DNA of 64,000 nt from the NCBI GenBank assembly GCA_019058245.1, contig JAHPZJ010000017.1, forward strand, positions 43,134 through 107,133, in the 5' to 3' direction. Position numbers and translations under genes: made by a program. The notes under the pieces are model-generated. The model was not told the origin of the DNA and searched no databases. It worked only from the letters and a program-made list of their open reading frames with translations. Shown piece by piece: positions 3-17,695 of the stretch. Source of the stretch: Promethearchaeota archaeon. GTDB lineage: Archaea; Asgardarchaeota; Lokiarchaeia; Sigyniarchaeales; SOKP01. Numbering within the stretch: position 1 is the stretch's first letter; each line of letters begins with the position of its first letter.

Positions 3-1703
3 GATGATCGAGATTTTGTAATGGAACAAGCCTTTAAAAAACAAGTTGGTGATTCTGACGTTGTCAATCAATACTCATACCGTATAATAAGAAAAGATGG
101 GGAGATCAGATGGTTCGAAATTCTCTCGAAAACTATAAATTATGAAGGACATCCGGCGGATTTAGCAATGATTATTGACATTACCGATAAAATAAAAGCT
201 GAAAGGCAGTTAAGAGATTCAGAAGATAAATTTTCTAAAGCATTCAATTCTAATGTTTTATCTATGAGCATATCATCTTTTGAAGATGGTAAATTCATTG
301 AAGTAAATGATGCTTTTTTAAATTATGTAGGTCATTCTAGGGAAGAAGTTATTGGTAAAACGACTGATGAGTTAGGTTTATGGGTTAGTGAAAAAGTTCG
401 GAAAAGATTTATAAGACTTATCGATAAACATGGAAGTCTATTTAATATAGAAACCAAAGATATACCAAGAACAGGAGAAACTAAATATGGTTTAGTCTCT
501 TATATTAAAATCATGCTTAATGAGAAGCCTTTTCTTCTTAGTATTCTAAATAACATAACTCCCCGGAAATTAGCTGAGCAGCAATTAAAAGAATCAGAAG
601 AAAAATTTAGATATATCGCAGATCATTCCTTATTGGGGATAACTATACTACAAGATGGTGTATTTAAATATTTTAATAAAAAAGTTGCTGAAACTTTTGG
701 AGGATCAGAAGAAGAGATTGAAAATTGGGGTCCGGGAGAATCAATAAAATTCATACATCCTGATGATCGTGACCTTGTAATAAGACAAGCACTTAAAGTA
801 CAACGTGGTGAATTTGATGATGCAGTTAACTATAAATATAGAATAGTAAAAAAAGATGGAAAAATTGGATGGCGTGAAACTTTCTCGAAATCAATAATTT
901 ATGAAGGTCGCCCAGCGGGTTTTGGAATTCACATTGATATTACAGAAAAGATCGAAGCGGAGCGGAAATTAAAAGAATCAAGGGAAAAATATCTTCGAGC
1001 ATATAATCAAGCAGAATTTTATAAAGATCTCTTTATCCATGATATAAATAATACTCTTCAGAGTCTTTATTCTTCTACCCAATTAATCGATATAGACTTA
1101 GAAGAAGATAGAAAAAATAATAATATTAATGAACTTATAGATATTATGTATAGACAGATTAATAGAGGGATAAATTTAATTTCTAATGTTCGTAAATTAT
1201 CTCAATTGGAAAATCATGAGATATCTCTCAAGGAAATCGATTTTTTTGATGTTTTAAAGCAATCCATAGAATTTTTAAAGAATACATTCCAAGATAGGAA
1301 CATTCAAATTAAATATGATATTTCTTGTGAGAATGTTCCAATCATTGGTAATGAACTACTTCAAGATGTGTTCGAGAATATTCTGATTAACTCAGTTAGA
1401 CATAACAATAATGATTGTGTAGAAATAGTAATTAAAACCTCACACGTAAAACAGGATGATAAATCTTATTGTAAACTAGAAATTATTGACAATGGCATTG
1501 GGATCGAGGATGAACGTAAGAAAAATGTGTTAAATCGGGCAGATCCTGATGCCAAAACTACATATGGAATGGGATTGGGCTTATCATTAGTCAAAAAAAT
1601 TATTGATAGTTATGGGGGAAAAATCTGGATTGAAGATAAAGTTGAAGGTGAGTATTCTAAGGGAACTAAAGTTATTTTATTAATACAAAAAGGTGGTTCT
1701 TGA
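3..1703 (+). CDS. Multi-PAS sensor histidine kinase (5'-partial, begins upstream of window)
   Basis: Frame is open from window start (DDRDFVMEQA). PAS/PAC repeats, H-box FYKDLFIHDINN, N-box ENILINSVRH, G1 DNGIGI, G2 GMGLGL. Confidence 0.92.
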   Translation, partial: DDRDFVMEQAFKKQVGDSDVVNQYSYRIIRKDGEIRWFEILSKTINYEGHPADLAMIIDITDKIKAERQLRDSEDKFSKAFNSNVLSMSISSFEDGKFIEVNDAFLNYVGHSREEVIGKTTDELGLWVSEKVRKRFIRLIDKHGSLFNIETKDIPRTGETKYGLVSYIKIMLNEKPFLLSILNNITPRKLAEQQLKESEEKFRYIADHSLLGITILQDGVFKYFNKKVAETFGGSEEEIENWGPGESIKFIHPDDRDLVIRQALKVQRGEFDDAVNYKYRIVKKDGKIGWRETFSKSIIYEGRPAGFGIHIDITEKIEAERKLKESREKYLRAYNQAEFYKDLFIHDINNTLQSLYSSTQLIDIDLEEDRKNNNINELIDIMYRQINRGINLISNVRKLSQLENHEISLKEIDFFDVLKQSIEFLKNTFQDRNIQIKYDISCENVPIIGNELLQDVFENILINSVRHNNNDCVEIVIKTSHVKQDDKSYCKLEIIDNGIGIEDERKKNVLNRADPDAKTTYGMGLGLSLVKKIIDSYGGKIWIEDKVEGEYSKGTKVILLIQKGGS

Positions 1704-2071
1704 TAACTACAGTTCTAATAGTTGATGATGATACAGATATTCTATTTTTGTATCAAAAAATGCTAGAATGTATTGGGGTAGAGGTGGTTGGAACAGCCCT
1801 TGATGGTGAAGAAGCCGTACAAATATTTAAATCATTTCAAAGAAAACCTGATATAATTCTAATGGATCATCGGATGCCAAAGAAAAATGGTCTTGAAGCC
1901 ACAAAAGAGATTTTAAGTATAAACAATCGTGTGAAAATTATTTTTGCGAGCGCTGATAGTAGTATTGAGAAGGAAGCCCTTTCAGTTGGCGCCATAAGTT
2001 TCAAAGAGAAACCCTTTAGTATCGAAAAAATAAAAAATAACCTCCTAAAAGCAATGAATTTAAATCAATAA
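1700..2071 (+). CDS. Single-domain response regulator receiver (CheY-like)
   Basis: VLIVDDD, DIILMDHRMP (phospho-Asp), KPF. TTG start overlaps the kinase TGA stop (TTGA), with GGTGG upstream. Confidence 0.92.
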   Translation: MITTVLIVDDDTDILFLYQKMLECIGVEVVGTALDGEEAVQIFKSFQRKPDIILMDHRMPKKNGLEATKEILSINNRVKIIFASADSSIEKEALSVGAISFKEKPFSIEKIKNNLLKAMNLNQ

Positions 2072-2495
2072 CTTCAGATAATTTAGACTAGAGAGATTCT
2101 ATTAATTTTAACATCAGGAGTTGGTATTACAAAGAGGAATAATATGTTAAATCTCAAAATAAAGGATTTAATTGATCTTATTAAGTTTCTTACTATTTAT
2201 AGAATGTACAATGAGAAAAATATTATTAATAAAATTATTTTAAGATCTGATCCAGATTAAGAAATTATCGAAATTATAATTACTGATAATTAATATTGTA
2301 TTTTTTTTAACTTTAAAATTTTAAAATTTATCAATAGTTACGAGTCTATAAGATTCCCTATTCTTTTGAAATTATAAAACAAAGCGATATTCTTAAAAAT
2401 AAATTCTACCATATTTAATTCAGTTTATTTTATAATTTAGTTACCACATCAGTAGTAAATATAAAATAAAACAGTAGACTGCTAAGGCTTTTTAG

Positions 2496-4778
2496 ATGAT
2501 AAATGAAATAAATGATGATTTAAATAAATTACTTGAAATACTTAAGATTATTACTGAACAGTCTCTCGTTGGGATAATAATAATACAGGATGGTAAATTA
2601 ATATATTTTAATAAGAGAGTATCTGAAACTTCTGGGTATTCAATAGAAGAGATTAAAGGTTGGAATCCTAATGATTTTCTTAAGGTTATCCATCCTGAAG
2701 ATCGGGAATCCGTCGCGGAACAAGCACGCAAAAGACAGTTAGCTGATCCAGAGGTTATCGATAAGAATAAATTTAGAATAATAAGGAAGAACGGGGAAAT
2801 TGCATGGATTAGAGTTTCTACGAAAAGAATAAATTATGAAGGTCGCACTGCAAATTTAGTAATGATTAATGATATAACTGATAAAATCAAATCTGAACAG
2901 AAATTAAAAGGATCAGAGGAAAAATTTAGAAATATCGCAGATCACTCTTTAGTGGCTATAAGTGTTCTACAAGATGGAGTATATAAATATTTTAATGACA
3001 AATTAGTTGAAATTAACGGATATTCTGCAGAGGAAATCAGAAATTGGGCTCCTAATGAATTTGCAAAAATAATCCATCCTGAAGATCGAGAATTTGTCAT
3101 GGAACAAGCACGTAAAAAGCAAACAGGTGATTCAGATGTTATCAATCAGTATCAATTTAGGATAAAAAGGAAAGATGGAGAGATTAGATGGATTGAAATT
3201 TTCTCAAAAACGATAAACTATGAAGGTCAGCCTGCAGATTTAATTATGACTAATGATATTACCGATAAAAAAAAGATTGAACAAAAATTGAAAGAATCAG
3301 AAGAAAAATTTAGAAATATCGCAGAACAATCTTTAATGGGGATATCTGTCACACAAGATGGTGTATTTAAATATTTTAATGATAGAGTTATTGAGAGCCT
3401 TGGATATTCAGTAGAAGAGATTGAAAGTTGGGGTCCTAATGAATTTGCAAAATTTATCTATCCTGAAGATCGAGAATTTGTCATGGAACAAGCACAGAAA
3501 AAACAAGCTGGAGATCCAGATGTTGTAAATCAATATCAATATAGAATAATAACGAAAGATGGAGTAATTAAATGGCTAGAAATATTTGCTAAAACAATAA
3601 ATTATGACGGTCATACTGCAGATTTAGCAATGACAGTTGATATTACCGATAAGATCGAAGCGGAACAGAAGCTAAAAGAATCTGAAGAAAAATTTTCTAA
3701 AGCGTTCAATTCTAATGCTTTAGCAATGTCTATAAGCACCATGGACGAAGGTATAATAATTGAAGTAAACGATGCCTTTCTAAAGCTTTTTGGGTTTTCT
3801 AGGAAAGAAATTACTGGTAAAACAGCTTCAGAAGCTAGATTAAAGGGTAGGGAGGAACGGAAAGAAATGTTAAGAACTATTGAAGAACAAGGAAGTATAA
3901 TTAATCATGAAACCGACTATAAAACTAAATCTGGGGAAGTTAGATACGGTTTATTTTCTTTCGTTAAAATTCTACTTAACGATAAACCCTTTCTTCTGAC
4001 AATTATAAATGATATTACACCATTGAAAATAGCTGAACAGAAATTAAAACAATCAAAGGAAAAATACCTTCGTGCATATAACCAAGTAGAGTTTTATAAA
4101 GACCTCTTTATCCATGATATAACTAATAATCTCCAGAGTCTTTATTCCTCTATCCAATTAATCGATATAAACTTAGATGAAAATTGTAAAAATAATACTA
4201 TTAAAGATTTCATAAATATTATATATAGACAGATAAATAGAGGTACAGAATTAGTTGCTAATGTTCGTAAATTGTCTCAATTGGAAGCGGAAGAAGTTTT
4301 CATTGATGAAATTGATGTTTTTGAGGTTTTAAATCGATCTATAGAATTTTTAAAGAATTTATTTCAAGATAAAAAAATTCAAATTAAATGGGATATATCA
4401 AGTGAAAAAGTCTTAATCCTTGGTAATAATCTACTTCAAGATGTATTCGAGAATATTCTTATCAACTCTGTTAGATATAATAATAATGATATTGCAGAAA
4501 TAATAATAAAAGCTTCACAAGTAGAACAAAATGGTATTTCTTATTGGAAACTTGAATTTATTGACAATGGTATCGGGATTGAGAATGAACGTAAGGAAAG
4601 CGTATTAAGTCGGGCAGATTTAGATTCTAAAACTACTTATGGAATGGGATTAGGGTTATCATTAGTTAAAAAAATCATTGAGAATTATGGAGGAAAAGTC
4701 TGGATTGAAGATAAAGTTGAAGGCGATTATTCTAAGGGAACTAATGTCATTTTATTAATGCAAAAAGGTGATCATTGA
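2496..4778 (+). CDS. Four-PAS sensor histidine kinase
   Basis: Repeated PAS modules, H-box HDITNN, HATPase G boxes; paralogue of 3..1703. Confidence 0.93.
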   Translation: MINEINDDLNKLLEILKIITEQSLVGIIIIQDGKLIYFNKRVSETSGYSIEEIKGWNPNDFLKVIHPEDRESVAEQARKRQLADPEVIDKNKFRIIRKNGEIAWIRVSTKRINYEGRTANLVMINDITDKIKSEQKLKGSEEKFRNIADHSLVAISVLQDGVYKYFNDKLVEINGYSAEEIRNWAPNEFAKIIHPEDREFVMEQARKKQTGDSDVINQYQFRIKRKDGEIRWIEIFSKTINYEGQPADLIMTNDITDKKKIEQKLKESEEKFRNIAEQSLMGISVTQDGVFKYFNDRVIESLGYSVEEIESWGPNEFAKFIYPEDREFVMEQAQKKQAGDPDVVNQYQYRIITKDGVIKWLEIFAKTINYDGHTADLAMTVDITDKIEAEQKLKESEEKFSKAFNSNALAMSISTMDEGIIIEVNDAFLKLFGFSRKEITGKTASEARLKGREERKEMLRTIEEQGSIINHETDYKTKSGEVRYGLFSFVKILLNDKPFLLTIINDITPLKIAEQKLKQSKEKYLRAYNQVEFYKDLFIHDITNNLQSLYSSIQLIDINLDENCKNNTIKDFINIIYRQINRGTELVANVRKLSQLEAEEVFIDEIDVFEVLNRSIEFLKNLFQDKKIQIKWDISSEKVLILGNNLLQDVFENILINSVRYNNNDIAEIIIKASQVEQNGISYWKLEFIDNGIGIENERKESVLSRADLDSKTTYGMGLGLSLVKKIIENYGGKVWIEDKVEGDYSKGTNVILLMQKGDH
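4590..4686 (+). repeat. 97-bp near-identical segment shared with 7832..7928 (HATPase G2 region)
   Basis: Manual alignment gives 95/97 identical, differing only in gatttagat vs gatctcgat. Confidence 0.85.
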
Positions 4779-5149
4779 TAACTATTTCAATTCTAATGGT
4801 TGATGATGATACAGACATTTTATTATTGTATCAAAAAATGCTAGAACATATTGGGTTTGAGGTAGTGGGAACAGCTAATAATGGTGAAGAAGCCGTACAA
4901 CTATTTAAATCATTTCAAAGAAAGCCTGATATAATTCTGATGGATCATCGGATGCCAAAGAAAAATGGCATTGAGACCACAAAAGAGATCTTAACTATAA
5001 ATAATCACTCTAAAATTATTTTCACGAGTGCTGATAGTAGTATTGAAAAAGAAGCCCTTTCAGTTGGAGCTTTAAGTTTTTTAAAAAAGCCTTTTAGTCT
5101 GGAAAGCCTAAAGGAAAATATTTTAAAAGCTATGATTTCAACTCAGTAA
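4775..5149 (+). CDS. Single-domain response regulator receiver
   Basis: Close paralogue of 1700..2071, with the same TTGA overlap with its kinase. Confidence 0.92.
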   Translation: MITISILMVDDDTDILLLYQKMLEHIGFEVVGTANNGEEAVQLFKSFQRKPDIILMDHRMPKKNGIETTKEILTINNHSKIIFTSADSSIEKEALSVGALSFLKKPFSLESLKENILKAMISTQ

Positions 5150-5356
5150 ATACAGTTAAAGATTATTTTCTCTTTCTATTTATATTTTTTTAATCCTATT
5201 TGATTAAAACTTATCTAATTAAAAATAATCTTTATATCAATTGTATAAATTTAAAGGTGGGCTGTTATTCCCATGATATTATCGACAACTATTATTATGA
5301 ATCTCAAATTAAATAATATGATAAATAGATTATTACTTTAAGAGAGGTCTACATAT

Positions 5357-6703
5357 ATGAACCGAAAGAGAGTTATTATTATAGGTGCTCTTGGTTATGA
5401 CTTTCACCTATTTAATACTGTTTTTAAGGATAACGAAGAATATTTTATTGTAGCATTCACTATTGCGGGAGAACAAAACGTAGGCACCACAGAAGAAACC
5501 GAAAGAAAATTTCCTGCAGAGCTAGCAGGTAGTTTATATCCAAATGGAATTCCAATGGTATCAGAAGATAAATTAGAAGATTTAATAAAGAAGTATCAGG
5601 TTGACGAAGTGGTTTTTGCCTATTCTGATGTATCTCACGAAGAAGTGATGCATAAAGCATCAAGGGCACTTGCTGCTGGTGCAAATTATCGCCTGATTTC
5701 AGGTAGATTTACGCAACTTAAAGCAAATAAACCCGTAGTTGCTATCTGTGCAGTAAGAACTGGATGTGGAAAAAGTCAAGTTTCTCGAGCTACATATAGA
5801 TATTTAAAGAATAAGGGATATAAAGTCGTAGCTATTCGCGAACCAATGCCTTATGGTGATTTAGTCCAACAAAATGTCATGAGATTTGAGAATTATGATG
5901 ATCTAGATAAATATGATTGTACTATTGAAGAACGCGAGGAATATGAACCTTATATTGAGCAAGGTTTAGTTATTTATTCTGGTGTGGATTATGAAAAAAT
6001 CATACGCGAAGCTGAGAAAGAAGCCGATGTAATTATTTTTGATGGTGGAAACAACGAAATTTCATTCTACATCCCTGATCTGCTATTTATAGTAGTAGAT
6101 CCTCTTAGACCAGGACATGAAGTTTTATATCATCCTGGAGAAGTTAATGCTCGATATGCTGATGCGTTTGTAATTAATAAGATGAATAATGCGAAAGCTG
6201 AAGATGTAAAGATTGTAGAAGATAATTTAAAAGCTCTAAATCCAAATGCTACTAAAATTTTTACAAATTCAATTGTAACAGTCGAGAATGATATTGATCT
6301 AAACGGAAAAAAAGTAATTGTCGTTGAGGACGGTCCTACATTGACTCATGGCAATATGTCTATTGGAGCCGGATTTGTAGCAGCAATCAATAATGGAGCA
6401 GAAATAGTCGATCCTAGACCCTATTTAACTGGAGCAATGAAATTAGTTTTCGAAGAATTTCCCCACATAACTCAAATCGTTCCAGCAATGGGCTATAATG
6501 AACAACAGATTAAAGATATGGAAGAAACTTTAAATAATGCTGAAGCTGAAATTGTTATTGATGGTAGTCCAATAAATCTTGAAAAATTAATAAAATGTAA
6601 CAAACCAATTGTACGAGTCAATTACGATATCGAATCAATAAAAAGTCCAACAATAGAGCAAGTACTTGACAAGTTTATTGATAAATGTCTAAAGAATTCT
6701 TAA
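5357..6703 (+). CDS. arcE: Arginine synthetase ArcE-like / cyclic 2,3-diphosphoglycerate synthetase-like P-loop protein (COG2403 family)
   Basis: N-terminal RVIIIGAxGxDFHxFN, P-loop AVRTGCGKS, REPMPYGDL, TIEEREEYEP, DGGNN, VEDGPTLTHG. OTC and carbamate kinase genes lie nearby. Confidence 0.72.
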   Translation: MNRKRVIIIGALGYDFHLFNTVFKDNEEYFIVAFTIAGEQNVGTTEETERKFPAELAGSLYPNGIPMVSEDKLEDLIKKYQVDEVVFAYSDVSHEEVMHKASRALAAGANYRLISGRFTQLKANKPVVAICAVRTGCGKSQVSRATYRYLKNKGYKVVAIREPMPYGDLVQQNVMRFENYDDLDKYDCTIEEREEYEPYIEQGLVIYSGVDYEKIIREAEKEADVIIFDGGNNEISFYIPDLLFIVVDPLRPGHEVLYHPGEVNARYADAFVINKMNNAKAEDVKIVEDNLKALNPNATKIFTNSIVTVENDIDLNGKKVIVVEDGPTLTHGNMSIGAGFVAAINNGAEIVDPRPYLTGAMKLVFEEFPHITQIVPAMGYNEQQIKDMEETLNNAEAEIVIDGSPINLEKLIKCNKPIVRVNYDIESIKSPTIEQVLDKFIDKCLKNS

Positions 6704-6889
6704 CTAAGTAATTTAAACTTTTTTTGAGATTAGGTTTTCTGTAAAATTTCTTAATCCTCAAACATATAACATAAAGAAATATTCTTATAAATATAATCCA
6801 ATATAATATTATTAGTTATATTTATGTGATTTTTTTTTTATCTGTACTAGAAAAAAGGGTTGCCTGAACTGTTTTAGGGGATTTTTAAC

Positions 6890-8023
6890 ATGGTATATAA
6901 TTTGGATGAATCTATGGAAACATTTAAAATAATTACAGAACAATCCCTCGTTGGAATAATCATAATACAAGATGGTCTATTTAAATATTTTAATGATAGA
7001 CTTACTAAAACTACAGGATATTCAGCAGAAGAGATCAAAAGATGGACTCCTAATGAATTTGCAAAAACAATTTATCCTGAAGATCGGGAATTTATTATGG
7101 AAATGGCACGTAAAAAACAAGCGGGTGATCCAGAGGTTCCCTATCAATATTCATATAGAGCGATAAGAAAGAATGGAGAAGTCTATTGGGTTGAAGTTTT
7201 TTCAAAAACTATAATTTATAAAGGGCGTCCAGCAGATTTTTTAATGGGGTATGAGATTACAGATAAGGTCAAAGCAGACCAAAAGTTAATAGAAACCAAG
7301 GAAAAATATCAAAAAGCATACCATCAAGCAGAATTCTATAAAGATCTATTTATTCATGATATAAACAATACACTTCAGAGTCTTTATTCATCTATCCAAT
7401 TGCTTGAAATAGGTTTAGAGAATATTCAAGAAAATAATGAGATGAAAGAACTCATTAATATTATGGATAGACAGATCAAAAGGGGTGTAAATTTAATCTC
7501 TAATGTTCGTAAACTATCTCAATTGGAAGAACATGAAATTTCTATTAGGGAAATAGATCTCCTTGAATTTTTAAAACGATCTATCGAATTTATAAAGAAT
7601 TCATTTCAAGAGAGGAAAATTCAAATCAAAATTGATGTATTTAATGAGAAGATGTTAGTAAAAGGTAATGAGTTACTTCAAGATGTATTCGAGAATATTC
7701 TTATCAACTCAGTGAGACATAATAATAATGATATTGTAGAAATAATAATAAAAACTTTACAAATAGAACAAGATGATACAACCTACTATAAACTTGAGTT
7801 TATTGACAATGGAATTGGCATTGAGGATCAGCGTAAGGAAAGCGTATTAAGTCGGGCAGATCTCGATTCTAAAACTACTTATGGAATGGGATTAGGGTTA
7901 TCATTAGTTAAAAAAATCATTGAGAATTTTGGAGGAAAAATTTGGATTGAGGATAGAGTTAAAAATGATTACTCTAAGGGAATTAATGTAAATTTATTAC
8001 TGTCAGAGTATGTTTCTTCATAA
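6890..8023 (+). CDS. Single-PAS sensor histidine kinase
   Basis: One PAS domain, HDINN H-box, HATPase; third paralogue. Confidence 0.92.
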   Translation: MVYNLDESMETFKIITEQSLVGIIIIQDGLFKYFNDRLTKTTGYSAEEIKRWTPNEFAKTIYPEDREFIMEMARKKQAGDPEVPYQYSYRAIRKNGEVYWVEVFSKTIIYKGRPADFLMGYEITDKVKADQKLIETKEKYQKAYHQAEFYKDLFIHDINNTLQSLYSSIQLLEIGLENIQENNEMKELINIMDRQIKRGVNLISNVRKLSQLEEHEISIREIDLLEFLKRSIEFIKNSFQERKIQIKIDVFNEKMLVKGNELLQDVFENILINSVRHNNNDIVEIIIKTLQIEQDDTTYYKLEFIDNGIGIEDQRKESVLSRADLDSKTTYGMGLGLSLVKKIIENFGGKIWIEDRVKNDYSKGINVNLLLSEYVSS

Positions 8024-8169
8024 ACAAAATTTTTATAGTAGATCATGATACAGACTGACTTTCGATTTTAGTTTAAAAATAACATGATTTTATTCTTATC
8101 GGTTATCTAATGCCAAAGATTAAACTCGATATGTGCGTTATTTAAATAATATTTAGTTCTTAAGACTCA

Positions 8170-8682
8170 TTAGCTCTTTACGTTCTTTTTCATTTTTAAA
8201 AGATAAAGAACATAAATCACTAGTCCTATTGCAAATACACCAATATCCATTAATAAAGCTCCAACCCAAGTACTATATACTCCAAGGCCAATATTTACTG
8301 CATCATCGAAGAGAAGTGGAACTCCAGTTGCGTTGGGGTCTATAGCACTCATTGGCCAACCTATTAAGTCTAAAATCCAATGACTAAAAACTACAAGGCC
8401 AATGATAATGCTTATATTCATTATTTCCTTACTCCATATTGTTGAAATATTTTCCGAATTTTTCCTTGATTTTAGATTAAAAGTAATGAGTGTCGTAATA
8501 AAAAAAGCGATTAATGACCAAATGATTGACATAAAAAGTCCATGAGTTATCCATAGAGCAAATATAAAAATAAAAGATAGAAGATCCAGAACCATAGAGC
8601 TTAATAATAGCGCCCAGAGAGGTATTTGAGGAGCAAAACGTTTGGTTGCTAAACCTATTCCAAGATGAGCTAAAGCAGGCAT
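8170..8682 (-). CDS. Membrane protein, putative metal-dependent hydrolase (YdjM-like)
   Basis: Hydrophobic helices, N-terminal His (LAHLG), THGL and SHWILD motifs. Confidence 0.6.
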   Translation of the reverse strand: MPALAHLGIGLATKRFAPQIPLWALLLSSMVLDLLSFIFIFALWITHGLFMSIIWSLIAFFITTLITFNLKSRKNSENISTIWSKEIMNISIIIGLVVFSHWILDLIGWPMSAIDPNATGVPLLFDDAVNIGLGVYSTWVGALLMDIGVFAIGLVIYVLYLLKMKKNVKS

Positions 8683-8838
8683 ATGATATAAAAATTTATA
8701 ATATTAAAAAATATTGATTAGTCCATTTTTTAATATTTGATAAGTTAAATAATATTTAATTCTATAGGCTCATTTAATCATCTATACTTTAAAATGATGT
8801 TTTTGATTTAGTAATTAAGACTTGGTAGTAGGAAATTT

Positions 8839-11019
8839 ATGATTCTAGCAGAAAAAAAATATAAAATCCAAGAAATCCAAAGAGGGTATGTAAATCGGAC
8901 TCTATATATCAATCTTAGTAGAAATGAAATTTCTATAAAGCCTGTTTCTGAAGAAATGAAAGATAAATTTATTGGAGGAAAGGGCTTTGATTTATGGCTT
9001 ATGTGGAACTCTCTTCCAAAAGATCAAATTGTAAAATGGGATGATCCTGAGAATGAGATTTGCATATCTTCAGGTCCATTAGGGGGGAGTATTTTTTATC
9101 CAGGTTCTGGAAAGTCAATTGTTACTTCAATATCTCCTCTAACAGGCATTATTATCGATTCTAATGTTGGAGGATACTTCGGACCTTATCTTAAATTTTC
9201 AGGTTTTGACGCATTAGAAATACAAGGAAAAGCGAAAAAAGATGTTGTCATTTATATTGATGGTATTGAGGGAATAATTCAAATTGAAGAAGTTGAAGAT
9301 TCTGAGAATTTATCAGAATTTTCTCATGAACTTACTCAACAATTAACAGAGAAGTATGCTATAGATGATGCGGAAAAAAGACAAATCTCTGTCGTTAGCA
9401 GTGGTCCAGCAGCTAAACATTCAAAGTGGGGGATGTTAAATTTCTCGTGGTATTCAACAATGCGCAAACATGCTTCTGTTAAGCAAGCAGGTAGAGGGGG
9501 AATAGGAACTGTATTTAGAAATAAAACTATAAGAGCATTAGTTTGTCGTTCTCCCAGCGTTTCAATAAGATCAAATAATCCAGCGGATTTAGAAACTGCG
9601 CGAGAACTTGGAAAGATTCATAGTAAAGATATTATGGATGTGGATCCTTTACAGAATGAAATGCGAAGAGTTGGAACGGGTTATTTACCAGATATTATGA
9701 ATGTCGTTGATCTACTTCCAACCGAGAACTTTCGATATGGTTCTCATAAAGAAATTAAAGATAAAAATATATCTTATAGTCGTGAAGAAATGCGAAAGGT
9801 TTATCATGTCAAAGAAGGAACGGATGGATGCTGGATTGGGTGCACTATGAGTTGTTCACATTATACAACGGGTCATAAAGTTTTGACAGGTCCTTTTAAA
9901 GGTCAAGAAGTAATTGTAGATGGTCCAGAATATGAAACTATAGCGGGGTGTGGATCAAATTGGGGAGTATGGGATGTAAAATGGGTTCTTGAAGTTAATT
10001 TTTATTGTGATACCTATGGTTTAGACACCATTTCTGTCGGGACAGGAATTGCTTTTGTTATGGAATGCTATGAGAAAGGTATTCTAAACAAAGAAATCAC
10101 GGGAAACCTTGAACTTAAATTTGGAAATGCTGAAGCTGCTTTAGAGTTAATACATCAGATGGCACGAGGAGATGGTTTTGGTGTAATTGTAGGAAAAGGA
10201 ATTAGGGAAATGAAAAAATTTTTTACCGAAAACTATGGTGGTAATCCTCAGTTTCTTAATGACATAGGGATGGAGCACAAAGGATTAGAATTTTCAGAAT
10301 ATATGACAAAAGAATCACTCGCTCAGCAAGGAGGATATGGATTAGCTCTTAAAGGGCCACAACATGATGAAGCATGGTTAATTTTTGAGGATATGGTAAG
10401 AAATACAATTCCAACTTTTGAAGATAAAGCAAAAGCTTTACGCTGGTTCCCTTATTGGAGGACCTGGTTCTCTTTAAATGGACTTTGTAAGCTCCCTTGG
10501 AACGATGCTATTGGCCCTCAAAATAAAGAACTTCCAATAAAAGATCCTGAAACAGGAGAGCTTCTCCAAGCTCGTGTTCCTTATCATGTTGAATGGTATG
10601 CCAAATATTTTTCAGCAGTTACAGGAAGAATCTCGACTCCAGATGATCTTATCATGATGTCAGAGAGAGTATACAATTTTCAGAGAATTTTTAATATTCG
10701 TTTGGGACAAGGGTTGCGTTCTGGAGACTCTAATTTACCATATAGATCAATGGGACCAGTTACAACCTTAGAATATGAAAGTCGTCAAGAAAGATATGAT
10801 GATCAACTTAAAGAATTAGGATTTGATCTATCAGATAAAAATACAGAAGAAAAAATAATGATTCTTCGAAAACATCGTGTTGAACAATATTCAAGACTTC
10901 AAGATGCCGTTTATAAGGAACGTGGATGGAATTTGAAAGGCTGTCCTACAATAGAAAAAATAAAAGAGTTAGGGATTAATTATGAAGATATTATGTCTAT
11001 AATTAAATTATATCAATAA
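8839..11019 (+). CDS. Tungsten-dependent aldehyde:ferredoxin oxidoreductase family protein
   Basis: FIGGKG, SPLTG-DSNVGG, QAGRGGIG, CxxGCxxxC, DGPEYET, CDTYGLDTIS. Confidence 0.9.
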   Translation: MILAEKKYKIQEIQRGYVNRTLYINLSRNEISIKPVSEEMKDKFIGGKGFDLWLMWNSLPKDQIVKWDDPENEICISSGPLGGSIFYPGSGKSIVTSISPLTGIIIDSNVGGYFGPYLKFSGFDALEIQGKAKKDVVIYIDGIEGIIQIEEVEDSENLSEFSHELTQQLTEKYAIDDAEKRQISVVSSGPAAKHSKWGMLNFSWYSTMRKHASVKQAGRGGIGTVFRNKTIRALVCRSPSVSIRSNNPADLETARELGKIHSKDIMDVDPLQNEMRRVGTGYLPDIMNVVDLLPTENFRYGSHKEIKDKNISYSREEMRKVYHVKEGTDGCWIGCTMSCSHYTTGHKVLTGPFKGQEVIVDGPEYETIAGCGSNWGVWDVKWVLEVNFYCDTYGLDTISVGTGIAFVMECYEKGILNKEITGNLELKFGNAEAALELIHQMARGDGFGVIVGKGIREMKKFFTENYGGNPQFLNDIGMEHKGLEFSEYMTKESLAQQGGYGLALKGPQHDEAWLIFEDMVRNTIPTFEDKAKALRWFPYWRTWFSLNGLCKLPWNDAIGPQNKELPIKDPETGELLQARVPYHVEWYAKYFSAVTGRISTPDDLIMMSERVYNFQRIFNIRLGQGLRSGDSNLPYRSMGPVTTLEYESRQERYDDQLKELGFDLSDKNTEEKIMILRKHRVEQYSRLQDAVYKERGWNLKGCPTIEKIKELGINYEDIMSIIKLYQ

Positions 11020-11122
11020 TTATAAATCTTTTAAATTAAATCATTCCTATATTAATCTTTTCTATAATTTTGCATAGTTATATTTATTAATTATAAATAT
11101 TTAGATTATAATCCGAAATGAA

Positions 11123-13207
11123 ATGGACGATATAAAAAAGCATCCTATTTTAGATATACAAAAAAGAAAAAAGATTTCTTTTATTTTTAACGGTGAAAAA
11201 TTAATTGGATTTGAGGGAATGGTTATATCTTCAGCACTTTTTTTAAATAAAATAAAAATTTTTGGTCATCATATTAAAGATAATAGCCCTCAAGGTATAT
11301 TTTGTGCTAATGGGCAATGTGCTCAATGTAATGTAATTGTGAATAGTATTCCTGTAAAAGCATGTATGACTATTCTTAAGGAAGGTATGAGAATAGAAAG
11401 TTGTGATGGATTACCAGAGCTGCCTGCTGAAGATAATGAAGTAAATGTAAGCAATGCTGAAGTTGTTGAAATCGAAGTACTTATAATAGGTGCAGGTCCT
11501 GCAGGATTATCTGCTACAAAGATTTTAGGAGAACATAAGGTTAAAGTGATTTTAGTTGATGATAAGGGTAAACTTGGGGGTAAATTAGTTCTTCAAACAC
11601 ATAAATTCTTTGGTTCTCAGAAAGATGTATATGCTGGAAAACGTGGAATAGATATTGCTAAAATTTTAAGTAATTCTATTGAAGCTAATTCAAATGTTCA
11701 GATTTGGCTAAATAGTGTATGTTTAGCAGTATTTAGTGATGGGTTAGTTGGAATCTTGAAGAATAATAAAGAATATGTCTTAATAAAACCTAAATTTTTG
11801 TTTATTGCTACTGGAGCCAGAGAAAAACAGTTAGTTTTTCCGGGAAATACATTACCAGGAGTATATGGTGCTGGTGCCTTTCAAACTCTAGTTAATCGTG
11901 ATTTAATAAAGGCAGCAGATAAAATTTTCATTATAGGAGGAGGTAATGTAGGCTTAATTGCAGGATATCATGCAATCCAAGCAGGTATAGAAGTGGTTGG
12001 TTTAATTGAAGCTTTACCTCAGTGTACCGGATATAAAGTACATGAAAATAAACTTAGAAGATTAGGTGTTCCAATTTATACTCGTCATGTTATTATTTCA
12101 GCTAATGGTAAAAAAAATGTAGAATCTACAACAATTGCAGAAATTGATGATAATTCTAAAGTAATTTCTGGATCTGAAAAGACATATGCCTGTGATACCA
12201 TTTTAATTGCCGTAGGATTAAATCCAGTCAATGAACTTTATCAAAAAGCAAAAGATTTTGAATTCAAAGTATGGGAAGCTGGAGATGCTCAAGAAATTGC
12301 AGAGGCTTCAGCTGCAATATTTACAGGGAAAATTGAAGCTTTAAAGATACTTAAAGAAATTGGGATTGAATTTTCTGAAAATATCAGCGAATTAGAAGAA
12401 TCCGCTAATTTAATGAAAACTAAACCTCCACAGCCAATAAAAACTGAAATAAAATTTAAAGAAGAGGGCATATATCCTGTTTTTTATTGTAATCAAGAGA
12501 TACCATGTAATCCATGTACTACTGTATGTGAGCATGAACAAATTGAAACTATTGATGATTTGATAACACAATTACCTTATTTTAAGAATGAAAAAGAGTG
12601 TATTGGATGTGGAAAGTGTGTTGCTGTATGTCCAGGATTAGCTGTTGTATTAATAGATTATCGCAAAGATCGAAATAATCTATTAGTTACTTTTCCCTTT
12701 GAATTAACAGAGGATAAATTAGAGAAAGGACAAAAAGTTATTGTTGTTAGTAATGATGAGGAATTAGGTACATTTGAAATTCATAGAGCTCGAATTTTAA
12801 AAGACTATCCTAAAACTCAATTAGTTACCATAAAATTGCCTTCTAAAATTGCAAAACAAGCAGTAGCAATTAAACTATTTCAAACCAAATTCAATGAACC
12901 AATAGATTTATATCAAAAAACCTTAACTGATGATGATACAATAGTATGTAGATGTGAACGTGTGTCAGTAGGAGAAGTTCGAAAATGGATACGTTCAGGA
13001 GTGAAGGATTTCAATGAATTAAAAGCATTGACTAAAGTAGGAATGGGCGCTTGCGGAGGTAAAACTTGTACACCGTTAATTGAAAGAATATTTCGAGAGG
13101 AAGGTATCGCAATTGAAGATATTATACATGGAACAAAACGTCCTCTATTTATTGAAGTTCCGATGGGTATATTCGCTAATGCTAAAAATAAAAATGAGGA
13201 ACTCTAA
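11123..13207 (+). CDS. Proline dehydrogenase/sarcosine oxidase alpha-like flavoprotein (2Fe-2S + FAD/NAD + 4Fe-4S + BFD fusion)
   Basis: FCANGQCAQC, GAGPAG, IIGGGNVG, CNPC..CIGCGKCVAVCP, CRCE..GMGACGGKTC. Confidence 0.82.
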   Translation: MDDIKKHPILDIQKRKKISFIFNGEKLIGFEGMVISSALFLNKIKIFGHHIKDNSPQGIFCANGQCAQCNVIVNSIPVKACMTILKEGMRIESCDGLPELPAEDNEVNVSNAEVVEIEVLIIGAGPAGLSATKILGEHKVKVILVDDKGKLGGKLVLQTHKFFGSQKDVYAGKRGIDIAKILSNSIEANSNVQIWLNSVCLAVFSDGLVGILKNNKEYVLIKPKFLFIATGAREKQLVFPGNTLPGVYGAGAFQTLVNRDLIKAADKIFIIGGGNVGLIAGYHAIQAGIEVVGLIEALPQCTGYKVHENKLRRLGVPIYTRHVIISANGKKNVESTTIAEIDDNSKVISGSEKTYACDTILIAVGLNPVNELYQKAKDFEFKVWEAGDAQEIAEASAAIFTGKIEALKILKEIGIEFSENISELEESANLMKTKPPQPIKTEIKFKEEGIYPVFYCNQEIPCNPCTTVCEHEQIETIDDLITQLPYFKNEKECIGCGKCVAVCPGLAVVLIDYRKDRNNLLVTFPFELTEDKLEKGQKVIVVSNDEELGTFEIHRARILKDYPKTQLVTIKLPSKIAKQAVAIKLFQTKFNEPIDLYQKTLTDDDTIVCRCERVSVGEVRKWIRSGVKDFNELKALTKVGMGACGGKTCTPLIERIFREEGIAIEDIIHGTKRPLFIEVPMGIFANAKNKNEEL

Positions 13208-14374
13208 ATGGTTGAATATGATGTGATCATTATAGGTGCGGGTAGTGTTGGTGTTCCTACGGCTTTAGCTACTGCAAATGATGGATTAAAAACACTCGTA
13301 ATTGATTCACTGCCCTCAGTAGCACAAGCAGATAATAAACATGCTATTGGGGGAATTAGAGCTACTCACTCTCATAAAGGAAAAATATGGTTATGTCAAA
13401 GATCAATTGAAATTTTCTCTTCTTGGGAAGAACGATATGGAGATGATATTTGGTGGACTCAGGGAGGTTATACATTTTTAGCATTTACAAAAGAACATGA
13501 AAATCAGTTAAAGGAAACTGTAAAACTTCAAAAAAGTTATGGATTAAATATTAATTATGTTAATGCAAATAAAATTAAGAATTTAATACCAGGTATCAAT
13601 GATGATAATCTATTAGGGGGAACACATAGCCCTGAAGATGGTAATGCTTCCCCTCTATTATCATTACATGCATTTTTTCGAAGATCAAAAAATTTAGGAG
13701 CAAAATATCAATTCAAAGAAAAAGTTACAGATATATTAACTAAAAATAATAGAGTAATTGGGATCAAAACTACAAGAAGCCAATATAAAACACAATCAAT
13801 TATTAATGCCGCAGGCGCTCATGCTAAAGAAATTGGAAATATGATTGGCATAGATACTCCAATAGAACCAGAATCACATGAAGCAGGAATAACAGAACCA
13901 GTAAAAAAATTCTTTACTCCAATGGTAGTGGATATTAGTGTTTGTTATGATCCCAAATTTGGAAACTCGAGGAATTATTATTTCTATCAAAATAAAGAGG
14001 GTAAAATACTTTTTTGTATAACTCCCGATCCAAATATTATAGGAATGGATCGTAATGAAACTAGCTCTTTTCTACCTCAGATCTCCAAGAGAATGATCCA
14101 ACTTATTCCACGATTAAGGAACATAAAAGTAAGACGAACATGGCGAGGATTATATCCAATGACACCTGATGGGAATCCAATCATAGGAAAAGTAGATGAG
14201 ATGAAAGGATATTTTAATGCTATTGGAATGTGTGGTCAAGGATTTATGCTAGGACCTGGATTAGGAGAACTTCTCAGTCGTATTTTAACAGATAAAGAAA
14301 CTTCGAGAGATAAAGAGATCTTAGAAACTCTCTGTCATAATCGTGATTTTAGTATAGAAGAAGAATTAAAATAA
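13208..14374 (+). CDS. DAO-family FAD oxidoreductase (proline dehydrogenase/sarcosine oxidase beta-like)
   Basis: DVIIIGAGSVG, GGIRATHS, INAAG, WRGLYPMTPDGNPIIG, GQGFMLGPGLG. Abuts the alpha subunit. Confidence 0.85.
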   Translation: MVEYDVIIIGAGSVGVPTALATANDGLKTLVIDSLPSVAQADNKHAIGGIRATHSHKGKIWLCQRSIEIFSSWEERYGDDIWWTQGGYTFLAFTKEHENQLKETVKLQKSYGLNINYVNANKIKNLIPGINDDNLLGGTHSPEDGNASPLLSLHAFFRRSKNLGAKYQFKEKVTDILTKNNRVIGIKTTRSQYKTQSIINAAGAHAKEIGNMIGIDTPIEPESHEAGITEPVKKFFTPMVVDISVCYDPKFGNSRNYYFYQNKEGKILFCITPDPNIIGMDRNETSSFLPQISKRMIQLIPRLRNIKVRRTWRGLYPMTPDGNPIIGKVDEMKGYFNAIGMCGQGFMLGPGLGELLSRILTDKETSRDKEILETLCHNRDFSIEEELK

Positions 14375-14461
14375 CTATTTTAAAAGAAATAAACTCAACT
14401 GATTTATATCAAGTATTTCTTTTTAATACTTAATTATAATAAAAAATTCAAAATCGTTAAA

Positions 14462-15394
14462 ATGCTTCGACATTTATTAAAAGTCTCTGATTTTTCAAAG
14501 AATGAGTGCGAGAAGGTTATTAATAAAGCAATAGAGCTTAAGAAAAATCCTAAGAAATTTAATTCAATTTTAGAAGGTGAAACACTTTTGATGTTTTTTG
14601 AAAAACCCTCTTTAAGAACACGAATTTCATTTGAAACAGGAATGCAACAATTAGGAGGGCATGCAATTTTTTATTCGATTAAAGACTCTCCTTTAGGTAA
14701 AAAAGAAAACCTTTCAGATACTGCTAAGGTTGCTTCTAGATTTGTAAATATTATTGCTGCTCGGGTTTTTAAACGACAAGATATTAGGGATCTTGCTAAA
14801 TATGCAGAAGTTCCTGTGATAAATATGTTGGATGATTTTGCACACCCATGTCAGATTTTAGGAGATTTTCAGACTATTAAAGAGAAAAAAAACAGTTTAA
14901 CTACCATGAAACTATCATATTTTGGTGATGCTCATAATAATGTTACTTATGATTTAATGCGAATTTGTGCAATGTTTGGATGGAGAATGGATGTTGCATG
15001 CCCTGATGTTCCAGAATATTCACCTGAACAAATAGTTTTAGATGAGGTTTCTGATTTATCCAAAGAAACTGGTGCAGAAGTACAAGTTATTCATAATGCC
15101 ACAAATGCAGCTCAAGATTCTAGTGTAATATATACTGATAGTTGGATGAGCTATGGGATACCTCAAGAGCAGGAAGAAGAACGGAAAAAGGCTTTTATGC
15201 CTTTTCAAGTTACCCCTTCAATTATGAAAGTTGCAAAACCAGATGTGGTCTTTATGAATTGTTTGCCAGCAATGAGAGGATATGAACAAACAGCTGATGT
15301 AATTGATGGTCCTCAATCAATTGTTTTTGATCAAGCAGAAAATAGATTGCATATTCAAAAAGCAATTATGTTGTTTTTAAGAGAAAAATTTTAA
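14462..15394 (+). CDS. arcB: Ornithine carbamoyltransferase (probably catabolic)
   Basis: KPSLRTR, HPCQ, YTDSWMS, NCLP, DQAENRLH. Adjacent to carbamate kinase. Confidence 0.93.
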   Translation: MLRHLLKVSDFSKNECEKVINKAIELKKNPKKFNSILEGETLLMFFEKPSLRTRISFETGMQQLGGHAIFYSIKDSPLGKKENLSDTAKVASRFVNIIAARVFKRQDIRDLAKYAEVPVINMLDDFAHPCQILGDFQTIKEKKNSLTTMKLSYFGDAHNNVTYDLMRICAMFGWRMDVACPDVPEYSPEQIVLDEVSDLSKETGAEVQVIHNATNAAQDSSVIYTDSWMSYGIPQEQEEERKKAFMPFQVTPSIMKVAKPDVVFMNCLPAMRGYEQTADVIDGPQSIVFDQAENRLHIQKAIMLFLREKF

Positions 15395-15458
15395 ATATTA
15401 AGTTATCTATTAATATTTTTTCTAAAAGTCTTGATATCTTGATTTTAGAGGTTGGAAT

Positions 15459-16370
15459 TTGAAAACATTAATCGTAGCACTTGGAGGGAATGCCTTAATA
15501 AAATTTGGAGAAGAAGGTACCACAGAAGAACAATTTCGGAATTTAAGAGTTCCAATTAGTCAAATTGCGAAACTCGCAAGAGACTATAACATTATTATTA
15601 CACATGGTAATGGCCCACAAGTAGGAAATCTCTTATTACAGCAGGAAGCAACAGCATTCATCTCAAAAAGTCCTTTACAAATATTAGTAGCAGAAACTCA
15701 AGGTCAAATTGGATTTATGATTGAAAGTACTTTAGATGAAGAGCTTATGAAAATTGGGTTGGATCAAGAAAAACTCTTCCTTACTGTTTTAACTTATGTA
15801 GAAGTTGATCCTGAGGATCCTGCTTTTAAAAACCCTACAAAACCCGTTGGACCTGCTTATCCTGTACGTACAAAATTAGGTCAAATCAAAACAGCTAAGG
15901 GGTGGCGACGTGTAGTTCCTTCTCCTGAACCGATAAAAATTTACCAATGGCGTGAAATTAAAAAACTTATGGAGCTTGGAAGTTGGATCGTAATTGCCTG
16001 TGGAGGAGGAGGTATTCCTGTCATAAAAGAAGGGAATAATTTATATGGAGTCGAAGCTGTTATTGATAAGGATCTTGCTAGTGCAAAATTAGGAGAACAA
16101 ATTAAAGCAGATATTTTATTAATCGCAACTGATGTTGAGAAGGTTGCTTTAAATTATGGAAAATATAATGAAAAATTATTAGAAAAACTTTCTGTGTCAG
16201 AAGCAGAAGAATATCTTAAAGAAGGTCAATTTCCTGCAGGAAGTATGGGTCCAAAAGTAAAAGCAATAATTAATTTCTTAAAGTCTGGAGGAAAACAAGC
16301 AATGATCACATCTATTGATAAAATAAAACAAGCTCTCAATCTTAAAGCAGGAACTCACTTTTTTTATTAA
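15459..16370 (+). CDS. arcC: Carbamate kinase
   Basis: VALGGNAL, THGNGPQVG, DPAFKNPTKPVG, RRVVPSP, GGGGIPV, EAVIDKD, GSMGPK. Confidence 0.96.
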   Translation: MKTLIVALGGNALIKFGEEGTTEEQFRNLRVPISQIAKLARDYNIIITHGNGPQVGNLLLQQEATAFISKSPLQILVAETQGQIGFMIESTLDEELMKIGLDQEKLFLTVLTYVEVDPEDPAFKNPTKPVGPAYPVRTKLGQIKTAKGWRRVVPSPEPIKIYQWREIKKLMELGSWIVIACGGGGIPVIKEGNNLYGVEAVIDKDLASAKLGEQIKADILLIATDVEKVALNYGKYNEKLLEKLSVSEAEEYLKEGQFPAGSMGPKVKAIINFLKSGGKQAMITSIDKIKQALNLKAGTHFFY

Positions 16371-16423
16371 AATAATTTAAAGGGATACAATAAAATAAAT
16401 GGAATTATCAATACTTTCTCTAA

Positions 16424-17695
16424 TTAAGAAATAAGTACTTTTTCAATAATTTCAAGAGCTAAATCAATTTCATTTTTTGTAATGACTAAAGGTGGAGCTA
16501 ATCTAATAATTGTTGAATGTGTATCTTTTGCTAAGATACCATTATCCTTTAATTGTTCGACAATTTGTCTAGCATCTTCTTCAAATTCAATTGCGATTAG
16601 TAATCCTTTTCCTCTAATTTCTTTAATAGGTATTTTAGTTCTTTTCTGAGAAATTTCATTTAATCTCTTTAAAAAGTAATCCCCCATCTCTTTAGCCCGT
16701 TCGGCAAGATTGTCCCGTAAATGAATATCTATAGATTTCATCCCAATTGCAGAAGCTAAAGGGTTTCCACCAAATGTGCTTCCATGAGTCCCTGGAGTTA
16801 TTACTTCTGGACCAATAATTTCTTTGGTACTTACACATGCAGATATTGGATAAACTCCACCACCAAGAGCTTTACCTAATAAGATCATATCTGGTTTCAC
16901 ATCCTCATGTTCACAAGCAAAAAATTTACCAGTTCGACAAAAACCAGTTTGAACTTCATCAGAAATTAACACTATATTATATTTTGTACAGATTTCTCTT
17001 ACTTTTTTTAAATATCCTTTGGGAGGAATCTTTACACCCGCTTCTCCTTGAATAGGTTCTACTAAGAAAGCAGCCACTTTTTCAGGACCAATTTCTAAGA
17101 TTGCCTTTTCCAATTCCTTCGCATCTCCATACGGAATAATATTAAATCCTGGGGTAAAGGGACCAAAGTATCCGTAATACCTTACTGCTGAAATGTCAGA
17201 ACTAAAACCCACAATAGTAACTGTTCTTCCATGAAAATTGTTTCTGCACACGATTATTCTTGCTTCATCTTTGGGGATTTTTTTTTTAATATAACCCCAA
17301 GCTCTTACTACTTTTATAGCAGTCGAAACAGCTTCTGTTCCTGTACTCATTGGAAGAGACATTATTCCACTATTATTTGGGTCATAAATGTGTGGTCCAA
17401 CAACATCTGCCAACATTTTAAGAAACGGTCCCATCATTGTGTTATGAAATGCCCGAGAAGTGAGAGTAACAATATCGGCTTGTTCTTTTAATGTCGCGAC
17501 AATTTCAGGATGACAATGACCCAAATTTTGACTTGAGTAGGCAGATAAACAATCTAAATATTTTTTACCTTCCGGATCATAAACCCAAACTCCTTCAGCC
17601 CGCGAAATTACTACTGGAATTGGATGATAATTATGTGCACCATATTCCAAATCCATTTTAATATAATCTTTTGAACTTGGCATTAAATATCCCAT
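16424..17695 (-). CDS. rocD: Ornithine--oxo-acid aminotransferase (class III PLP)
   Basis: YGAHNYHP, YLDCLSAYS, EPIQGEAG, DEVQTG, LGKALGGG, HGSTFGGNP. Confidence 0.93.
   Translation of the reverse strand: MGYLMPSSKDYIKMDLEYGAHNYHPIPVVISRAEGVWVYDPEGKKYLDCLSAYSSQNLGHCHPEIVATLKEQADIVTLTSRAFHNTMMGPFLKMLADVVGPHIYDPNNSGIMSLPMSTGTEAVSTAIKVVRAWGYIKKKIPKDEARIIVCRNNFHGRTVTIVGFSSDISAVRYYGYFGPFTPGFNIIPYGDAKELEKAILEIGPEKVAAFLVEPIQGEAGVKIPPKGYLKKVREICTKYNIVLISDEVQTGFCRTGKFFACEHEDVKPDMILLGKALGGGVYPISACVSTKEIIGPEVITPGTHGSTFGGNPLASAIGMKSIDIHLRDNLAERAKEMGDYFLKRLNEISQKRTKIPIKEIRGKGLLIAIEFEEDARQIVEQLKDNGILAKDTHSTIIRLAPPLVITKNEIDLALEIIEKVLIS

Follow-up and report, generated by a model that had tools for sequence, protein, structure and literature searches.

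Here we examine a putative arginine catabolic gene cluster in a Promethearchaeota archaeon of the Lokiarchaeia, carried on a stretch of 64,000 nucleotides (contig JAHPZJ010000017.1 of assembly GCA_019058245.1, positions 43,134 to 107,133; hereafter the window, to whose numbering all unprefixed coordinates refer). The cluster, spanning 5357-17695, comprises nine open reading frames (ORFs), all intact, and centres on a gene for a homolog of the arginine synthetase ArcE. The features of the locus are as follows:

21..5149 (+): tandem PAS kinase and receiver pairs upstream of the cluster, a local expansion outside the conserved system, with many paralogs in the genome
5357..6703 (+): ArcE homolog (COG2403-type P-loop protein) of a Promethearchaeales/eukaryote subfamily, 448 residues, from identity to TK2200, motifs, trees and a structural model
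6890..8023 (+): PAS histidine kinase (Pfam PAS, HisKA and HATPase), an insertion specific to the lineage and outside the conserved set
8170..8682 (-): hydrophobic 170-residue protein with no Pfam or NCBIfam match, a variable passenger
8839..11019 (+): aldehyde:ferredoxin oxidoreductase (AOR), 726 residues, from Pfam AFOR_N and AFOR_C
11123..13207 (+): flavo-iron-sulfur fusion subunit resembling the alpha chain of proline dehydrogenase (PDH), 694 residues, from Pfam and Thermococcus kodakarensis matches
13208..14374 (+): PDH-beta-like FAD amine/imino-acid dehydrogenase, from Pfam (DAO family) and its best PDB match
14462..15394 (+): ornithine transcarbamylase (OTC) of the Giardia/metamonad type, from TIGR00658 and motifs
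15459..16370 (+): carbamate kinase (CK, ArcC), from TIGR00746 and its best PDB match, 1E19
16424..17695 (-): ornithine delta-aminotransferase (OAT, RocD), convergent, from TIGR01885

All members of the gene list in a preliminary description of this DNA (P-loop protein, OTC, CK, OAT, PDH-like pair and AOR) are thus intact ORFs where it had placed them. The last three genes exceed the cut-offs of the corresponding NCBIfam equivalog models, OTC with a score of 360 (cut-off 281), CK with 367 (358) and OAT with 523 (378). Continuity between arcE and the AOR gene is broken in the window by the PAS kinase and the oppositely oriented membrane protein. A promoter scan of the locus with a bacterial model gave results at chance level. 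The source assembly is 76% complete, a figure that bears on every absence reported below from the whole genome.

Database names would make the P-loop protein a cyclic 2,3-diphosphoglycerate synthetase (cDPGS) or a GTPase whose position among these genes is incidental, and the fold is indeed a shared one: an AlphaFold2 model of the protein (pLDDT 90.8) adopts the cDPGS/LpxK fold, its top Foldseek match being cDPGS 8ORU at 16% identity, and it also matched LpxK 4EHY, the structural neighbour given for the T. kodakarensis arginine synthetase TK2200 (PMC11032458). At the level of sequence, the protein is 56% identical to TK2200 over 446 residues (E=0) and has no significant match to T. kodakarensis cDPGS (E=0.04), whose gene adjoins that of 2-phosphoglycerate kinase (2PGK). 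The gene used here as TK2200, 99% identical to its T. peptonophilus ortholog, is the sole ArcE-family gene, near 1.98 Mb (the position expected of TK2200), of a 2,088,737-bp Thermococcus genome that we take to be T. kodakarensis KOD1. A PDB sequence search returned no match at E<=1 between the window protein and solved cDPGS sequences, and Pfam, NCBIfam and PDB sequence searches assigned it to no family. In phylogenetic trees it is placed among the ArcEs, in a clade that excludes cDPGS and is separated from it by a very long branch. It retains the P-loop RTGCGKS, the motifs IEEREEYE and EDGPTLTHG, a DGGNN core in place of the EGSG of cDPGS, and 133 of 166 conserved ArcE positions. Neither 2PGK nor cDPGS was found in the whole source genome, and NCBI applies the same wrong cDPGS name to Thermococcus ArcE orthologs. 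The cDPGS of M. fervidus (8ORK/8ORU) therefore shares with the window protein its fold and P-loop chemistry (an ATP/ADP-coupled condensation), and differs from it in sequence (16-20% identity), in motifs and in needing 2PGK. Judged by sequence and phylogeny, which agree with the ArcE-type synthetase of the preliminary description, the gene is an ArcE homolog rather than a cDPGS, and the reading as cDPGS or GTPase is effectively refuted.

Michimori et al. (PNAS 2024, PMC11032458) established the chemistry of ArcE and its yield of two ATP, showed that Lokiarchaeota and a few eukaryotes have homologs, and described the reaction as reversible and close to equilibrium; the pathway in T. kodakarensis comprises ArcE (TK2200), ArcB (TK0871), ArcC (TK2158) and an ornithine aminotransferase, OrnAT (TK2101) (PMC11032458, PMC13260591). 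On this precedent, and from its 56% orthology and context, the window ArcE would convert arginine, ADP and phosphate to citrulline, ammonia and ATP. The OTC, by its family assignment and the established chemistry of that family, would phosphorolyse citrulline to ornithine and carbamoyl phosphate, from which CK would form the second ATP, and the OAT would pass ornithine to glutamate-5-semialdehyde/pyrroline-5-carboxylate (P5C). We assign a probability of about 0.78 to this reading, a Thermococcus-like arginine synthetase pathway run by a divergent ArcE subfamily. The predicted yield of two ATP per arginine, as put forward in the preliminary description, follows from the ArcE-OTC-CK set and the reaction in PMC11032458, together with the conserved synteny described below. 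The same description had noted no arginine deiminase (ADI) gene, arcA, in the window; in the whole source assembly a profile search (PF02274) detected no ADI, archaeal ADI-like queries gave no tblastn match, and the single ureohydrolase scores best as an agmatinase. The cluster shares with the T. kodakarensis pathway its enzyme set, a full-length ArcE match, the lack of ADI, an ornithine aminotransferase downstream and the LpxK 4EHY structural match. It differs from that pathway, whose genes are scattered, in forming a single operon or cluster, in the clade-specific features of its ArcE, in its Giardia-type OTC, in the physical joining of the PDH-type pair and AOR, and in the presence elsewhere in the source genome of carbamoyl-phosphate synthetase (CPS), argG and argH.

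Conservation of the neighbourhood was evaluated at the Promethearchaeota loci having about 10 kb of sequence downstream of arcE (n=34; hereafter long loci). Downstream of arcE at these loci lie AOR (34/34), both PDH genes (33/34) and OTC (30/34), with CK and OAT next where the locus sequence extends far enough. The clustering is not due to chance, nor is it peculiar to the source genome: most arcE loci of the source family are arranged in this way. The 170-residue membrane protein recurs between arcE and AOR at eight of the 34. A sister family carries a compact, co-oriented arcE-OTC-CK-OAT operon (L116, L119, L159, L160, L053), in which OAT, convergent in the window, is transcribed with the other three genes; the four-gene operon is present in Ca. 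Harpocratesius repetitus and in two single-contig genomes of 4,324,194 and 6,035,313 bp, which we take to be those of MK-D1 and Ca. L. ossiferum. In these compact-operon genomes the AOR and PDH orthologs are located elsewhere. A role in regulation had been proposed for the flanking PAS kinases; they flank arcE in just two of 40 loci, both from the closest relatives, and a gene like that at 6890-8023 (>55% identity) follows arcE at one of the 34 long loci, so that regulation by these kinases finds no comparative support. At least three PAS histidine kinases and two receivers stand in tandem around arcE at 21-8023, an arrangement seen only in the closest relatives. In two relatives, genes resembling kamD and kamE of lysine fermentation, judged by eye from their N-termini, lie directly past OAT (L151:11997-18211, L152:54-2442) and extend the cluster there toward fermentation of basic amino acids; tblastn detected no lysine-fermentation aminomutase genes in the source genome.

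Several observations weigh against the reading as an arginine synthetase pathway. In the window ArcE, four signatures are changed, GAAGRDFHN to GALGYDFHL, ATQIP to IAGEQN with a five-residue insertion, RHPMPYG to REPMPYG, and DGGNND to DGGNNE, and the canonical forms are replaced in all 66 ArcEs of the Loki clade. In total, these 66 sequences depart from the canonical residue at 24 positions whose conservation among 64 canonical ArcEs is 90% or more, including (in TK numbering) R17 to M, Y or F, H160E, D232E and W226F, and Q41-I42-P43 becomes GEQ with the insertion; the altered loop roughly aligns, in a weak alignment, with the cDPGS loop that brings E45/K46 into the neighbouring active site. 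We found no published data tying the replaced signature residues to activity. To these points are added the incompleteness of the source genome, the low identity (about 33%) of the PDH-beta chain to characterised enzymes, and the retention of AOR in 10 genomes that have no arcE, CK or PDH-beta. Since the changes are fixed at otherwise near-invariant positions, ArcE activity is not to be assumed outright. The ArcEs of other Asgard archaea are canonical, unlike those of the Loki clade. Haloarchaeal ArcE homologs (L164:6001-7347, P0281) have REPMPY, DGGNNE and the insertion and keep the N-terminal Arg; in trees they fell outside the Loki clade.

That a conserved Arg and a conserved His have been lost together, and that the loop is remodelled, could signify that the subfamily acts on another guanidino substrate, either homoarginine or agmatine (the latter yielding, for instance, N-carbamoylputrescine with formation of ATP), in which case the transcarbamylase, aminotransferase, flavoenzyme and AOR would process a diamine. 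The presence of an amine dehydrogenase and an AOR would fit such an aminoaldehyde route. Also in favour of this alternative, lysine-fermentation-like genes flank OAT in two relatives. The partner enzymes point the other way. The transcarbamylase is an OTC by score, nearest to the catabolic OTC of Giardia, and falls below the NCBIfam model for putrescine transcarbamylase (281; cut-off 500). It is also the only OTC found in the source genome, in single copy, where the arginine biosynthetic cluster has no argF. The aminotransferase, above the ornithine cut-off, is below that for putrescine (246; cut-off 659), and the R17-equivalent Arg is itself variable in some otherwise canonical ArcEs (L075, L128). 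We therefore consider a different substrate unlikely. Arginine is still favoured, mainly because the gene neighbours of the variant ArcE recur: CK on the eukaryotic side, OTC-CK-OAT on the archaeal.

The direction in which the arginine synthetase pathway would run is informed by the biosynthetic genes of the same genomes. The source genome encodes the cluster argH-argJ-argB-argD-argC-argG (G000:C30:120846-128460, L177) and CPS, so that, by the logic of the PNAS study (PMC11032458), its ArcE should be catabolic, the single OTC serving both directions. The gene inventories of relatives differ: argG was not found in four, three of them single-contig genomes, and neither argG nor CPS was matched in the 4,324,194-bp genome taken as MK-D1. 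In a genome of the latter type ArcE-OTC probably also supplies the carbamoyl phosphate needed to make pyrimidines and to mature [NiFe]-hydrogenase, resembling the supply by ArcE/ArcB in T. kodakarensis, where both uses are documented (PMC11032458, PMC13260591). Read more generally, ArcE could be mainly a biosynthetic or supply enzyme, making arginine in one step from citrulline, ammonia and ATP, or providing carbamoyl phosphate and proline, with little net ATP; the reversibility of the reaction would allow this, as would the missing argG in four relatives, the missing CPS of the MK-D1-type genome, and the fact that pyrroline-5-carboxylate reductase (ProC) was not found in four of five genomes examined. 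With CK in the same operon and argG, argH and CPS in the source genome, a predominantly supply-directed ArcE is very unlikely, and such a role would in any case be largely complementary to catabolism rather than exclusive of it. A HypB-like GTPase gene (24848-25564), of the type that inserts nickel into hydrogenases, lies 7 kb downstream of the cluster in the window and would be of interest should hydrogenase maturation draw on this carbamoyl phosphate.

Beyond ornithine, the preliminary description had ornithine and proline converge on P5C. For proline this convergence is less well supported, given the low identity of the beta chain and the plausibility of the opposite flux. The two PDH genes abut with no gap (0 nt). 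Three adjacent T. kodakarensis genes correspond to residues 4-427, 456-586 and 607-693 of the 694-residue alpha chain (identities of 39, 35 and 36%). This marks the chain as a fusion of three subunits of the four-subunit PDH-type complex of Thermococcus, namely the alpha subunit (2Fe-2S, FAD- and NAD-binding), the ferredoxin subunit and the small BFD-like one; the FAD- and NAD-binding motifs GAGPAG and GGGNVG are kept. The beta chain has as its best PDB match 1Y56_B, from the P. horikoshii PH1363 complex (E 3e-54), and is 31-33% identical to two T. kodakarensis beta subunits. Architecturally, with its FAD and Fe-S modules, the pair is that of an archaeal dye-linked L-proline dehydrogenase. Relative to the Thermococcales enzymes (P. 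horikoshii PDH1, 1Y56, whose beta chain is the closest solved relative, and the four-subunit complexes of T. profundus and T. kodakarensis) all accessory domains are present, the differences being the fusion of subunits, the divergence of the beta chain and the linkage to arginine genes. The PDH-beta family also includes enzymes of sarcosine, hydroxyproline and opines, and proline as substrate would be favoured here by context. The presence or absence of PDH-beta agrees with that of CK in 25 of 26 genomes, and for this reason we place PDH in the module, with the qualification that these genomes were chosen largely for having no arcE or an unlinked AOR and, being related and having linked genes, represent few independent events.

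In a fifth and weaker step, the PDH-type flavoenzyme might use NAD(H) and ferredoxin to interconvert proline and P5C, while a tungsten AOR could oxidise the semialdehyde to glutamate with formation of reduced ferredoxin; we regard the chances of this step as even. The pair might instead work reductively, NADH driving P5C to proline, possibly with reduction of ferredoxin as well, so that it would replace ProC and act as an electron sink, and ornithine would be disproportionated to proline and glutamate with no oxidation of proline. The NAD-type dinucleotide motif and the 2Fe-2S, ferredoxin and BFD modules of the alpha chain are in keeping with this, as are the failure to find ProC or ornithine cyclodeaminase in the source genome and the loss of PDH together with arginine genes. 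The P5C/proline couple, at about -120 mV, moreover lies far above NAD/NADH (-320 mV), and proline oxidation therefore needs a high-potential acceptor. Against reduction stand the characterised Thermococcales homologs, which were assayed as dye-linked proline dehydrogenases, and the fact that, at 33% identity, the substrate is a putative one. In an anaerobe, NADH-driven reduction of P5C seems at least as plausible as oxidation of proline; the full reductive scheme, which concerns the direction of this branch only and is compatible with the arginine synthetase pathway, is a serious possibility at somewhat less than even odds.

The AOR has intact pterin- and 4Fe-4S-binding motifs (GRGG, GPEYE, DxxGLD, CxxxCxxxC, GPQH), and the source genome encodes MoaA, MoeA and TupAB-like proteins, the TupA/B matches being below their cut-offs; the window enzyme is probably tungsten-dependent. 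By score, the sole NAD(P) aldehyde dehydrogenase of the source genome is not a P5C dehydrogenase, and no NAD(P) aldehyde dehydrogenase was found in the genome taken as MK-D1, which leaves room for AOR to oxidise glutamate semialdehyde. It is accordingly only a candidate glutamate-5-semialdehyde oxidiser, and not exclusive to the pathway. The proposal of a dedicated glutamate-semialdehyde:ferredoxin oxidoreductase is weakened, strict co-occurrence with the arginine/proline genes failing in the 10 genomes mentioned above. AOR is unlinked in the compact-operon genomes and occurs alone in many relatives, and the source genome has several AOR paralogs, 23-26% identical to that of the cluster. Kept as it is, alone, in genomes without arcE, CK and PDH-beta, it has the appearance of an aldehyde enzyme of general use that the module has recruited. 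The placement of a tungsten AOR in the pathway by the preliminary description thus stands as regards an intact gene, linked to arcE at all 34 long loci, and is weakened as regards a dedicated role. A second AOR (640 residues) occurs in the window at 39069-43990, after a 920-residue flavoprotein with 4Fe-4S and CCG domains.

ArcE proved widespread among Asgard archaea: 217 of the 251 genomes had it, representing 23 of 27 families. Among 29 genomes sampled from other Asgard families, OTC was present in all and a CK match in 25. ADI was counted from model-spanning frames (about 437 residues), yielding full-length ADI-like genes in about seven of the 251 genomes, none in the order of the source genome, and at least some of these sit in OTC/CK clusters of their own. 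A raw PF02274 tally (132/251) was dropped as an ADI count, consisting mostly of short DDAH/amidinotransferase-like frames of 250-310 residues. In a few Asgard genomes of other families an ADI-like gene accompanies OTC and/or CK (L081:619-3740, L084:1384-3660), most of these genomes also having arcE. With ArcE widespread and ADI rare, ArcE is the prevailing candidate for the first step across the sampled phylum. No ArcE was found in the viral contigs searched.

Two genes of the pathway show affinity to eukaryotes, to which Asgard archaea are closely related. The motifs NNVTYDL, DSWMSY and NCLP of the window OTC, among the Asgard sampled, are confined to the source order, other Asgard OTCs having SMG and HCLP; its best PDB match is Giardia 3GRF, and its placement as metamonad-type combines the motifs and PDB ranking with the study of Novak et al. 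(2016), who placed a Lokiarchaeum OTC in a metamonad-containing eukaryotic clade and reported OTC and CK but no Loki ADI (PMC5052871). The CK shows no such affinity. The ADI pathway (arcABC, including its metamonad version, PMC5052871) resembles the present one in its use of OTC and CK, its ATP from carbamoyl phosphate and the motifs of the Giardia OTC. Its first step is a hydrolase, whereas that of the Asgard pathway would be an ATP-forming P-loop ligase, and an ArcE first step would explain why Novak et al. found no ADI in Lokiarchaeum.

Variant ArcEs occur in apparent eukaryotes as well. A full-library search retrieved further ArcEs with the REPM/GNNE motifs, including one from the ichthyosporean Creolimax (EukProt). 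The variant arcE adjoins tetraspanin and CK genes on one apparent eukaryotic contig, a WW-domain gene, CK and a beta-type carbonic anhydrase on a second, and another CK on a third; a further copy lies beside a gelsolin-repeat gene, and one eukaryotic arcE is split by GT-AG introns. The arcE-CK pairs on three independent contigs (L162:1-3454, L165:74-2941, L167:3032-6941) would constitute a prokaryote-like metabolic cluster in protists. Ranked below only four members of its own group, the named proteins that best matched the tetraspanin-linked ArcE among 5.8 billion were Asgard, mostly Promethearchaeota, and a metagenome scan with the eukaryotic ArcE alignment recovered prokaryotic loci only. 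In unrooted trees, with long eukaryotic branches and Creolimax as the only named eukaryote, Loki and eukaryotic ArcEs form a group that leaves out the other Asgard sequences (SH-aLRT 100); the grouping had support of 99/96, with the bootstrap not fully settled, under a mixture model with the insertion and signature columns removed, and of 100 after 73 more prokaryotic ArcEs were added. A rough approximately unbiased (AU) test (LG+F+G4, 5000 replicates) gave p=0.03 for an all-Asgard clade, p=0.52 for a eukaryote clade and p=0.24 for an Asgard+eukaryote clade; weakly rejecting only the first, it establishes neither the direction of a transfer nor descent. Tentatively, and with more doubt than confidence, we suggest that the ArcE route rather than ADI was the ancestral means of drawing energy from arginine in Asgard archaea, and that a Promethearchaeales-type ArcE and OTC, whether inherited or transferred early on, came into the first eukaryotes and survive as the arcE-CK pairs of protists and the ArcE of Creolimax. 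If so, the OTCs of the eukaryotic 'ADI pathway' would originally have served ArcE.

The basic reading is that of a known pathway in a lineage for which ArcE had already been named, the one Lokiarchaeota mention (PMC11032458) being the only link between Asgard archaea and arginine synthetase in the literature searched. Added here are the near-phylum-wide distribution of ArcE, the operon in culturable Asgard, and the eukaryote affinity of ArcE and OTC; neither the 217/251 distribution nor the eukaryote-grouping subfamily was found in that literature, and the PNAS supplementary tree may already draw a eukaryote-Loki grouping. Amino-acid-fermenting Asgard would gain a concrete substrate-level route to ATP. 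The four-gene operon in the genomes taken as those of cultured MK-D1 and L. ossiferum makes the pathway directly testable, and for MK-D1, in which CPS and argG were not found, predicts a need for arginine in pyrimidine synthesis and hydrogenase maturation that could aid cultivation. The results offer an answer to a question raised by the 2016 work on arginine breakdown in eukaryotes, which had a eukaryote-like Lokiarchaeum OTC and no ADI (PMC5052871). Two genes of one pathway with Loki-eukaryote affinity bear on energy metabolism in the host lineage of eukaryotes, and also on an unstudied ATP-yielding pathway in protists. Thousands of proteins that carry a mistaken cDPG synthetase annotation are flagged as well.

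Just past OAT (18130-18630, minus strand) lies an ORF of 166 residues with a RelA/SpoT domain (nucleotidyltransferase-like), unusual for archaea and seemingly short or truncated.

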